Positions 36,301 through 39,052 of a stretch of DNA of 64,000 bases are shown here, piece by piece. Every line of letters starts with the position of its first letter. Positions within the stretch are counted from its first letter, which is position 1. The stretch is from Raja brachyura (Eukaryota): the NCBI GenBank assembly GCA_963514005.1, contig OY740797.1, positions 24,924,001 to 24,988,000 on the forward strand, in the 5' to 3' direction. The notes under the pieces are model-generated. The model worked only from the letters and a program-made list of their open reading frames with translations. It did not search any database and was not told the origin of the DNA. A program made the position numbers and the translations under genes.

Positions 36301-39052
36301 GGGAGAGATTGACCAGACTTTATCCCTTGTGCTACAGAAGGGTCACAGGGGTGATCTTATAGAAGTTCCTCGCAAGAGATGAGCGGATAGGGCAAACGCA
36401 CAGTATTTTGCTCAGTGTAGGGGAATGGTAAAACAGAGGGCAAACGCTTATGGGAGGATGGAAATATTTAATAGGAATCTGATAGGGCAACTTTTTTAGA
36501 CAAATCGTGGTGAGTATATGGAAGGAGATGCCAGAGGAGCTAGTTGAGCCAGGTGAAATAACAACGTGTAAATGATATCTGGACCGGCACATGGAGAGGA
36601 TAGGTTTAGAACGTCATGGGCGAATGGGTGTATGTGGGTCCACATGGGCAAGTTAGGCCGAAGTGCCTGTTTCCATATTGAATAACTATTTGATTCCATA
36701 AATGTTGGTGGGTGAACATTTAGGGACCAGTATCTGCAGTTCTATTTGCTTGAAAATAATTTTGAATACGCACAGGGCTGGTCCACAAGGTTGAAGTTCT
36801 AAGCCGTGCAAGGCCAACTTTGATGGTATTCGACAGGAATTTACAAACGTTTGGTGGCGCCTTGGAGCAGACACAACCATCTGAAGAAGAGTCCCGACCC
36901 GTAACATCACCTATCAATGTTCTGCAGAGATGCTGATTGATCAGCTGAATTACTACAGCACTTTGTATACTTTTGTCTCACAAATCTTCAGTCGAGCAGG
37001 TTGTTTGCGGCCAAAGCGGCTTCAAGTAAGTGAACTGCTCTTCAAAGTGCAATGGCGAGAGTCGCAAGCATGTATGTTCATGTTAAAGTAATGGGTAAGA
37101 CAAATGGGAGTAAAGAAGACCAGATGACGTGCAAATTTGAGTCTCTGGTCAGGAAAAAAGGAGGTGTGGGCTGTTGGGACGAAATGTATCCCCGAAGAAA
37201 TTTAGGGGATAGAGGAGCATAGTTAAGAAGCAAATCAAACGGGCAAGAACAGGCAATGGATAATTACAGCAGATAATATTAAGGAAAATATGAATACATT
37301 TCTGGAGTACATAAAGGGGAAAAGGGTAATTAGACAGTGAGATAAAATCCGCTGTAACCTGTGACAGCCTTTCCTCCAACTCCAGCAATGTTATTAAAGG
37401 TATATCGACAATTAGGCAGATCCATTTACATTTTAGCCAGATTCGCCTTCGGAAAATTCAAATTTGTCACTTTTTACTGTTTGCTTTGCACAAACATTGA
37501 AATTATTTGTAGATTTCTGTGCTTACAATGTATTACATCAGATTCAATGGAGAGGGATTTTCCGGAGCTTCGATTTTTATATGTATCCTATGCTTTTCAA
37601 TCTTACAGGTATTCCAATCATCAATTGCCTCAGGATAATATGCGGGTTAGTAACTTTACTACTGCCTCTTGGCATTGCACTGCGTTGTATTGCAAGAAAA
37701 AATAAAGGTAAGAATAATTTAACACAATTAAACATTTTGTTCAGGGGGCTAAAGCTCCAGAAAGGGAAGCACATTAACTCTCTATTCTCGGGGAATATAC
37801 CTTATTCTATCTTATCATCATATTCGGCAAACATATTGGGGGCCGAGGGACCTGTTCCTGTGCTATGTATTAATGTTTTATGTTACAATGTGTAGCCTTC
37901 ATATTGCATCTAGGAAAATTAATTACCTTTCATGAAAGCATTCATATTCGCTATACCGCACATTTTTAAGTACACTAAAACCCTACTGTCACGTGCTGTT
38001 CCCCTCAGAACTGAAGATCTCGTCCAATTATGTATTCCCGAAAAAAGCTCTGACTAGAATTAAATGACTGACGATATCAGCATATTAATATCGATTATGG
38101 ATATAGCCATGTCTTTGCAGATGATCGACTCAATCGACCTATATTAACCACCAATGAACCGCTTGTGAACCGTTTTTTTCGGGTGACAAAATGCAATTTT
38201 TGTAACTTGATAACTGATTAATATTATTAATTTACCAGGTACCCAAAGGGAAGGCGGAATATATGATATTAAAGGTATGTACTCAAAATCCATGGAATTA
38301 TTTTTGAAATATAATATAATATATTATACAAAATTAGCAGTAGAGCCGTTTGAACAAAAATGCAGCATTGTCTTAAAAAGAACCATCGCAAGTCTGCGAT
38401 GTATTTAATTGCCTTCAGAGTAATCTGAAGAAACATTTCACATTTACATCCCCATGGAAGAAGTTAAGTTGAAATATCTGCCTTTGCCTTCCATACAACA
38501 GAAATTGGTTAGCAGGGTTACTGCTACCAATACCTCTAGGTACCAGCCGTTCAAAGTGTTTTGTCCGTTAACACGAATGCTGGATGAAAACCCATCTTGC
38601 CAAGCTGATAAAATGAAAATCACTTCTAAAAAAAATCGTACCTGCTGTCAACAGAATGCCTAAGGTCTATTGAATGCTCTTACCTCCAGAGCAAAATCAT
38701 GAATGCCTACCACGGATCCATATTTGCCATTTTTGCCTGGCACGCACTGCATGCCCAGTATTTACCCTGTCAAGCACCGAAGACAGCAGTAGGATGTCAA
38801 ATTCGTACAGGATCAAGCTGCCCTCTATTCCTGCGTAAAGCGAAACACCAGGGGCACCCGCAGTCATTTCAGTGGACCTTCGTTGAACTGTGCCGTGTAA
38901 CAGTAACATAGTATTCCTTTCTTTAAGTAAGCGCATAGAAACAGACGACGTTTTTAGTTGTAGTTCAAATAACGCTTTGTAAATTTGAAGTAAGAGTTAT
39001 ATATATACTTGCAGCATCACCCCCAGAAGATGACAGGCCAATGCCGCTGTAG
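30268..39052 (+). CDS. Gene B: activating-type VJ-C1 Ig-superfamily receptor with TM arginine (short-tail model, 284 aa)
   Basis: join(30268-30322,30490-30810,32065-32370,37609-37707,38239-38274,39015-39052) = 855 nt, open, all GT-AG and phase 1. The last exon is the least certain part; see the alternative ITIM exon at 41336. Confidence 0.75.
30490..30810 (+). CDS. Gene B exon 2, Ig V-set (VJ-type) domain
   Basis: ctgctacag| [13 protein letters not shown]...TLYC...IYWWK...[18 protein letters not shown]...[16 protein letters not shown]; 321 nt. Confidence 0.94.
32065..32370 (+). CDS. Gene B exon 3, Ig C1-set domain
   Basis: tttgcag| VPPAQLRIS...[21 protein letters not shown]...GLYEVSSHL...[11 protein letters not shown]...SKT |GTAACG. 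It is 306 nt, the same length as the gene A C1 exon. Confidence 0.94.
35512..35853. mobile_element. MITE with about 40-bp TIRs (PIF/Harbinger-like)
   Basis: tgtcccacggtacgagttcattccaaga... versus ...tcttgaaatgaactcgtaccgtggggca, with an internal 26-bp tandem duplication. Confidence 0.7.
35880..36680 (+). mobile_element. CR1 LINE 3' fragment in gene B intron 3
   Basis: Typical RT C-terminal and 3'UTR remnants. Confidence 0.75.
37609..37707 (+). CDS. Gene B exon 4, transmembrane segment with N-x-x-R motif
   Basis: tcttacag| [39 protein letters not shown]; 99 nt, phase 1-1, with a basic stop-transfer end. Confidence 0.85.
38239..38274 (+). CDS. Gene B exon 5, cytoplasmic mini-exon [12 protein letters not shown]
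   Basis: tttaccag| ... AAAG|GTATGT; 36 nt, phase 1-1. Confidence 0.7.
39015..39052 (+). CDS. Gene B candidate short terminal exon [12 protein letters not shown]
   Basis: acttgcag| phase-1 acceptor; TAG at 39050-39052. Confidence 0.5.

Follow-up and report, generated by a model that had tools for sequence, protein, structure and literature searches.

A candidate activating receptor gene of Raja brachyura joining a SIRP-like ectodomain to the arginine-bearing transmembrane module of another paralogue

An Asn-x-x-Arg (N-x-x-R) motif in the transmembrane (TM) segment of a receptor with a SIRP-like ectodomain raises the question of whether that receptor signals through FcRgamma or CD3zeta, and of whether the motif was inherited from an ancient adaptor-binding module or acquired anew. 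The gene concerned, here gene B, is predicted in a stretch of 64,000 nucleotides (nt) of the cartilaginous fish Raja brachyura (contig OY740797.1, below C17; C17:24924001-24988000), which is called the window and to which all positions refer unless a contig is given. An initial annotation had described gene B as a VJ-C1 ectodomain attached to a TM module in the style of the leukocyte receptor complex (LRC), with a motif either ancient or convergent. Our sequence comparisons indicate that gene B is a chimera, in which the ectodomain of B', a paralogue bearing immunoreceptor tyrosine-based inhibitory motifs (ITIMs), is followed by the TM and ITIM-broken tail of a second lineage, D. The resulting receptor probably acts as an activating counterpart to B' and would use its Arg to assemble with a dimer of FcRgamma or CD3zeta. 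Neither the chimeric origin nor the 94% identical inhibitory partner nor the broken ITIM exon had figured in the initial annotation.

Exon structure and chimeric origin of gene B

Gene B has a leader-VJ-C1-TM-short tail layout, with six exons that are all open and have canonical AG/GT ends, and a predicted protein of 278 amino acids (aa). It was compared mainly with B' (C17:25043522-25053498), with the D-lineage genes D1 and D2, and with P0069, an annotated manta ray protein that is a D orthologue. The features concerned are the following:

30268-30322, plus strand: predicted exon for the leader (signal peptide), 55 nt long and of phase 1, ATG-started and hydrophobic; the same exon is present in B'
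30490-30810, plus strand: V-set exon of VJ type, B-type ectodomain, with a J-like GSGSRIKV end; Pfam V-set 35.5 bits; 94% aa identity to B'
32065-32370, plus strand: single C1-set exon; Pfam C1-set 45.2 bits; 94% aa identity to B'
33749-33911, no strand: chimera junction in the C1-TM intron, with a high-copy short repeat at about 33763-33916 and very high contig depth in the bin
37609-37707, plus strand: TM exon of the D lineage, 99 nt, with three Cys
37623-37634, plus strand: Asn-Cys-Leu-Arg, with the Arg codon (37632-37634) at a column where the family mostly has Cys
38239-38274, plus strand: first cytoplasmic exon of gene B, 36 nt (44 in the uncharged D2), ending in phase 1 and not 0; the same exon is present in P0069
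39432-39451, plus strand: start of the ancestral exon for the ITIM and the immunoreceptor tyrosine-based switch motif (ITSM), out of frame and with an early stop; the tail ends VYAICR
39468-39728, no strand: inserted repeat directly behind the first ITIM's Tyr codon; over 221 nt it shares 74.7% identity with the insert at the corresponding place in D1
39729-39800, plus strand: orphaned 3' half of the ITIM/ITSM exon, with a weak tail-profile match and an ITSM that no longer matches

The stretch from 28586 to 33748 is colinear with B' at 76-90% nt identity, whereas from 33912 to about 46000 the colinearity is with D1 and D2. The ectodomains of these two are just 33-40% or so identical to that of gene B. 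B' itself combines an uncharged TM with Tyr-motif exons, and the shark B-type proteins P0005 and P0010 likewise carry a B'-like uncharged TM with ITIMs; because the sharks share this layout, the arrangement of B' would be ancestral and that of gene B derived. The gene order fits a deletion inside a duplicated unit C-A-B'-D. Exon counts (two B-type and two D-type V exons versus one B'-type and three D-type TM exons) leave no orphan half. As for an assembly mis-join, this cause was ruled out, given that both halves differ from every paralogue and that no such orphan remains.

The tail carries the marks of the same D lineage. D2 has a TM without Arg and an intact exon encoding the ITIM VPYAAL and the ITSM TLYAQV, and P0069 has, as D2 does, an uncharged TM and two ITIMs. 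On the other hand, gene B and D1 have three derived traits in common, namely the Arg in the TM, a shortened first cytoplasmic exon (36 and not 44 nt), and the repeat insert after the ITIM Tyr codon, an insert that gave 20 blastn matches within the fetched loci. The loss of 8 nt in the first cytoplasmic exon shifts the frame of the D-lineage ITIM exon in gene B, and with the acceptor at 39432 the tails of both B and D1 stop 17 residues past the TM exon with no ITIM. A local duplication behind the two Tyr exons of D2 was also considered and dropped, as P0069 has two as well.

Translation of the TM exon agrees with the initial annotation in that positions 37623-37634 read NCLR within an open exon with AG/GT ends (phase 1 to phase 1; G plus 32 residues). 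This was the sole phase-1 TM-like exon detected in a scan between the C1 and the cytoplasmic exons of gene B, and a single C1 match lies between V and TM. The top 19-residue hydropathy window of the exon reaches 2.33, and its hydrophobic segment contains no Lys. It scores on the family TM profile, of whose seed it is itself a part, it has two homologous exons elsewhere in the genome, and together with the next exon it matches P0069, so that it represents more than a chance reading frame. We infer C1-to-TM splicing from the exon phases and these homologues; contigs of four sequencing runs from other organisms cover introns, with no exon-to-exon joint among those listed, and say nothing about splicing. 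The count of three Cys in or beside the TM, for which dimerisation or palmitoylation had been envisaged, was likewise confirmed in the exon. The cytoplasmic Cys is also found in D2 and P0069, which makes palmitoylation at this residue plausible, and the remaining two are also found in D1, with no support for a role.

Arginine gain, ITIM loss and the likely signalling partner

To judge whether the Arg of gene B belongs to a general trend, charge and tail states were compared across the family. In this genome 9 of the 10 genes with an Arg TM had no intact Tyr exon, compared with 2 of the 18 uncharged ones (Fisher p 7e-5). Gene B was scored at its ancestral acceptor for this count, and four genes in which no TM was found were excluded, as was a fifth with insufficient downstream DNA. 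Protein searches provided 59 chondrichthyan relatives, of which 44 exceeded the TM-window threshold and 15 were dropped. Among the proteins of these other species, the Tyr exon or ITIM was lost in 7 of 8 with a basic TM versus 9 of 36 with an uncharged one (p 0.002). On a tree of 64 ectodomain rows, where the charge state changed at least 16 times, 15 tree-independent pairs gave a mean of 10.4 in the same direction, 0 in the opposite one and 4.6 ties (sign test p ~0.002). The outer-TM Arg thus looks meaningful in gene B and linked to ITIM loss across the family.

Candidate adaptors are encoded in the same genome, as CD247-like (C12) and FCER1G-like (C24) TM exons were found, both with a TM Asp. 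Partners of FcRgamma are described as carrying an Arg at the N-terminal end of the TM, as opposed to the central Lys of type I DAP12 partners, and adaptor assembly as centred on one TM residue, which favours repeated origin (PMC1440944). In the history that we propose, a D-lineage copy would have gained the TM Arg and lost the ITIM frame, and this D module would then have come to lie behind a B-type ectodomain when the C1-TM intron underwent a deletion or an unequal crossover. A ligand common to B' and B would cluster the gene B receptor, whose outer-TM Arg would pair with the two Asp of the adaptor dimer, and the immunoreceptor tyrosine-based activation motifs of the adaptor would then recruit Syk/ZAP70. 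Surface expression, which the initial annotation had suggested as an assay, would be a weak test of this coupling, because N-x-x-R receptors are reported to reach the surface often without FcRgamma (PMC6557307).

Several observations weigh against this interpretation. Two gene pairs share their TM/tail module through chimerism, which makes the true number of independent events smaller, and tail and charge states were judged by eye from profile matches. One A-type Arg gene in the genome retains its Tyr exon (ITIM), P0001 of Mustelus combines Arg with an ITIM, and the Arg occurs in several registers across the family. Some Arg cases may be passengers in decaying copies, as several neighbours are frameshifted. 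For gene B itself, the leader, the splicing and the tail are all predictions from sequence, the junction repeat is spanned by no contig among those listed, and use of a weaker acceptor, at 39448, would end the tail in VSYFSLV, in which VSYFSL fits the ITIM consensus. Finally, an FcalphaRI with a polyleucine TM that kept only the Arg is reported to have assembled at about 11% of the wild-type level (PMC1440944), so that TM context counts for FcRgamma assembly, and gene B lacks the LRC context.

It is unlikely, though conceivable, that gene B represents a copy in decay or a non-signalling decoy, its Arg being carried along at the membrane edge without binding an adaptor. Frameshifts and missing exons in neighbouring genes would fit such a fate, as would the 8 nonsynonymous versus 3 synonymous codon differences among the 32 codons of the B and D1 TM exons, and the top 19-residue hydropathy window begins just past the Arg. 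However, all six exons of gene B are open and canonically bounded, the Arg and the 17-residue tail were retained in B and D1 despite a TM-exon identity of 83% nt, and the 12 nonsynonymous and 11 synonymous codon differences between the ectodomain exons of B and B' suggest constraint. The family-wide link between Arg and ITIM loss, in addition, runs one way.

A dual-function receptor, comparable to the dual-function KIR2DL4, would result if the downstream acceptor were used and gene B combined one ITIM-like motif with adaptor binding. We consider this improbable. Splicing to 39448 does restore an open frame with the ITIM-consensus match, and P0001 provides a precedent for Arg and ITIM in one protein, but the pyrimidine tract in front of this acceptor is poor, and at 39432 the ancestral acceptor remains intact. 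Moreover, the match is built partly from the inserted repeat, which supplies its final residues, and in D1 the same path meets a stop before the motif is complete and yields none.

Signalling through DAP10 or DAP12 instead of a zeta-family dimer has only a slim chance of being correct: the Arg-bearing NKG2D uses DAP10 and rodent Ly49 pairs an Arg with DAP12 (PMC1440944), but both are type II proteins, a type I N-terminal Arg goes with FcRgamma and its position mismatches the DAP12 Asp (PMC1440944), and the two weak matches to a DAP10 profile do not read as DAP10, although this does not prove DAP10 absent.

Ancestry of the N-x-x-R motif

We next consider where the full N-x-x-R came from. The literal motif stands at the N-terminal end of the gene B TM. 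Within this genome it occurs in 2 of the 30 family TM exons found, those of B and D1, which represent a single origin. In 28 aligned TM exons the Arg column holds Cys in 13, Ser in 5, Arg in 5, Phe in 2, Tyr in 2 and Ala in 1, and an Asn three columns before the Arg is found in two, both of that one origin. An Asn beyond chance is thus not shown, and the Asn of gene B is likely incidental.

Conservation in relatives, which the initial annotation had put forward as a check, was not found, as N-x-x-R is present in 0 of the 44 chondrichthyan proteins with a TM window, including four shark proteins with a B-type ectodomain. An outer basic TM residue, judged by eye, is present in 8 of these 44 (7 Arg and 1 Lys); among the four shark proteins of B type, two have an Arg, each time in another context. 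In a tree of 24 family TM exons with their flanks, a set that LRC sequences lie outside, B and D1 nest with the uncharged D2 (99/98), and a single clade for the five TM exons with Arg in the same column was rejected (approximately unbiased test, p 1e-53). The TM exon of gene B with its flanking introns is 74% identical to that of D2.

The LRC-type N-x-x-R subtype is described as also having a DYT motif and an acidic C-terminal end of the TM (PMC6557307). DYT was found in 0 of the 28 aligned family exons, and the acidic end is lacking in gene B, whose exon ends RCIARKNK. The proposed LRC-style module therefore did not hold up: the TM of gene B nests among uncharged TMs of its own family. Attachment of N-x-x-R to ectodomains other than those of the LRC is already known from Xenopus FCRL (XFL) and SLAM receptors (PMC4536121, PMC2413239). 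The absence from the 44 relatives, the uncharged TM ancestry, and the lack of DYT and of an acidic end argue that the N-x-x-R of gene B is likely convergent, so that of the two origins first offered the convergent one stands and the ancient one falls. An ancient module descended in common with that of the LRC and Xenopus FCRL/SLAM and shuffled onto a VJ-C1 ectodomain would accord with the position of the motif and with the reported conservation of N-x-x-R TMs from amphibians to mammals on several ectodomain families (PMC6557307, PMC4536121, PMC2413239), but the D2 identity, the nesting and the missing companion features largely refute it and leave it scarcely any probability.

The receptor family and its comparison with known systems

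Of 48 candidates from a genome search with the V domain, 32 were matches, all of them on C17 and mainly at 19.7-20.3 and 24.7-25.1 Mb. The exon catalogue was obtained with profiles built from both clusters apart from 20011385-20050000 and 20220001-20240000. The SIRP-like VJ-C1 ectodomain of the initial annotation was borne out by the Pfam V-set and C1-set matches and by the ESM Atlas, where the top two clusters for a shark B-type protein are SIRPalpha (0.97 and 0.96); SIRPalpha was also its third PDB match. A short-tailed Arg member retrieved an unnamed V/C1 cluster first and then a SIRP-beta-like one. In PDB searches, neither the V domain by itself nor its profile placed the family, the matches being generic Ig proteins. 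The automatic names of the 59 relatives are inconsistent, many of them SIRP-like, and the nearest relative of one cluster gene is a Leucoraja protein. The family is, on this evidence, SIRP-like, with SIRP orthology not shown. Genes with a SEP domain, one of which may be the SIRP-linked NSFL1C, lie on C4 and C22, and the family on C17; no family V or C1 match was found within some 200 kb of sequence surrounding the C22 gene. The cluster flanks (L068, L163, L169, L175, L176) hold exons for a septin, a leucine-rich repeat protein, a rhodopsin-type G protein-coupled receptor, a pyridine nucleotide-disulphide oxidoreductase and an amino acid transporter; the 86 filtered open reading frames of this survey allowed no firm chromosome assignment.

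Identity with NKp30/NCR3, suggested by the J-like end, was ruled out: gene B has a C1 exon and paralogues with ITIMs, and it shows no linkage to the major histocompatibility complex (MHC), none of the 12 MHC class I matches being on C17 (they map to C25 and to unplaced contigs). Full-text literature searches turned up neither this family nor Arg-type SIRP-like receptors of cartilaginous fish, a provisional result. The main texts of PMC12227049, PMC10751288 and PMC3964593 do not mention SIRP, and the elephant shark genome supplements may bear on the question.

Other members illustrate the variety of the family. Gene A (window 10111-17525, plus strand) has an uncharged TM (14442-14543) and two Tyr-motif exons, in the last of which the first Tyr is replaced by Asp (ELADASL), with Tyr in its two paralogues. 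The TM exon of gene C (window ~50860-50971, minus strand) has a T run longer by one T than in two paralogues, which shifts the frame near the exon end and reflects either a broken copy or a homopolymer error. The gene with its V at 19792040 has two tandem TM exons (C17:19789919-19788545, minus strand), the first uncharged and the second with Arg, which might give two forms by alternative splicing; its Tyr exon was not found. At C17:19700000-19712000 (minus strand) lies a 95% copy of an Arg (HVLR) gene with C1 and TM, in which the V exon was not detected.

A second chimera, in the other cluster (C17:19840000-19848500, minus strand; V at 19847346), has its breakpoint at the C1 end, an ectodomain 96% like gene 19920695 and a TM/tail 88-92% like genes 19813866 and 19871983, and carries an Arg and a degenerate tail. 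In P0003, P0075, P0080 and P0076, a common short-tailed TM type (PRF followed by hydrophobic residues) occurs in Heterodontus, Scyliorhinus and Mustelus, and in Chiloscyllium with Gln in place of the Arg; it stands on a B-type ectodomain in Heterodontus and on another ectodomain in the rest, which suggests module shuffling in sharks too. Apart from the family, a tandem array at C30:11.88-12.92 Mb has 26 strong C1-set matches and is presumably one of immunoglobulin light chain clusters.

Taken more widely, the data raise the tentative possibility that cartilaginous fish have a large, apparently undescribed family of paired SIRP-like VJ-C1 receptors that passed from inhibitory to activating some ten or more times through an outer-TM Arg recruiting CD3zeta or FcRgamma, with N-x-x-R arising independently in gene B. 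The process itself is already known from KIR and Ly49; provisionally, the Arg-type SIRP-like chondrichthyan family appears to be new. The finding would draw its value from the pairing of chimeric B with B' and from the recurrent switch to Arg, and not from an ancient N-x-x-R. B and B' would form a clean natural pair for studies of ligand sharing and pathogen-driven decoy evolution, and B, D1 and D2 a set for comparing the sufficiency of Arg alone and of Arg plus Asn in adaptor binding. If CD3zeta were the partner, a germline VJ-C1 receptor would use a T-cell receptor adaptor, a living model of signalling by pre-RAG precursors of antigen receptors.

With SIRP the family shares a non-rearranging VJ domain, C1, Tyr-motif tails in the uncharged members and paired forms. 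It differs in having one C1 domain, whereas SIRP has two (V-C1-C1), and in using an outer Arg as the activating switch, whereas SIRPbeta1 has a central TM Lys and couples to DAP12. NKp30/NCR3, which couples to CD3zeta/FcRgamma through a TM charge (PMC12272517), resembles gene B in its VJ domain, but NCR3 is a single VJ without C1, and gene B has a C1 exon and ITIM-bearing paralogues. As in the LRC receptors (LILRA, NKp46, GPVI, FcalphaRI, OSCAR) and Xenopus XFL/SLAM, gene B has a short tail and a type I TM whose N-terminal end carries Asn and Arg at a spacing of three; in contrast to them, it lacks DYT and the acidic C-terminal end, its motif is not conserved in orthologues, and its TM would derive from an uncharged one.

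The closest parallel is with KIR and Ly49, whose activating forms are reported to arise repeatedly from inhibitory genes by mutation followed by recombination (PMC2213150). Gene B has two features of such a paired receptor, namely an ectodomain nearly identical to that of the uncharged, ITIM-bearing B' and a basic TM residue. In both cases the inhibitory form would be ancestral, a gene family gains a basic TM residue and loses its ITIM, and the change spreads by recombination and duplication. The rule that activating receptors come from inhibitory ones, shaped by older adaptors, would thereby extend to the oldest lineage of jawed vertebrates and to a SIRP-like VJ-C1 family. The differences are the VJ-C1 ectodomain, the cartilaginous fish host, and an outer-TM Arg in several registers as opposed to one central basic residue, so that the switch here would be an Arg with, likely, a zeta-family adaptor, versus a Lys with DAP12.

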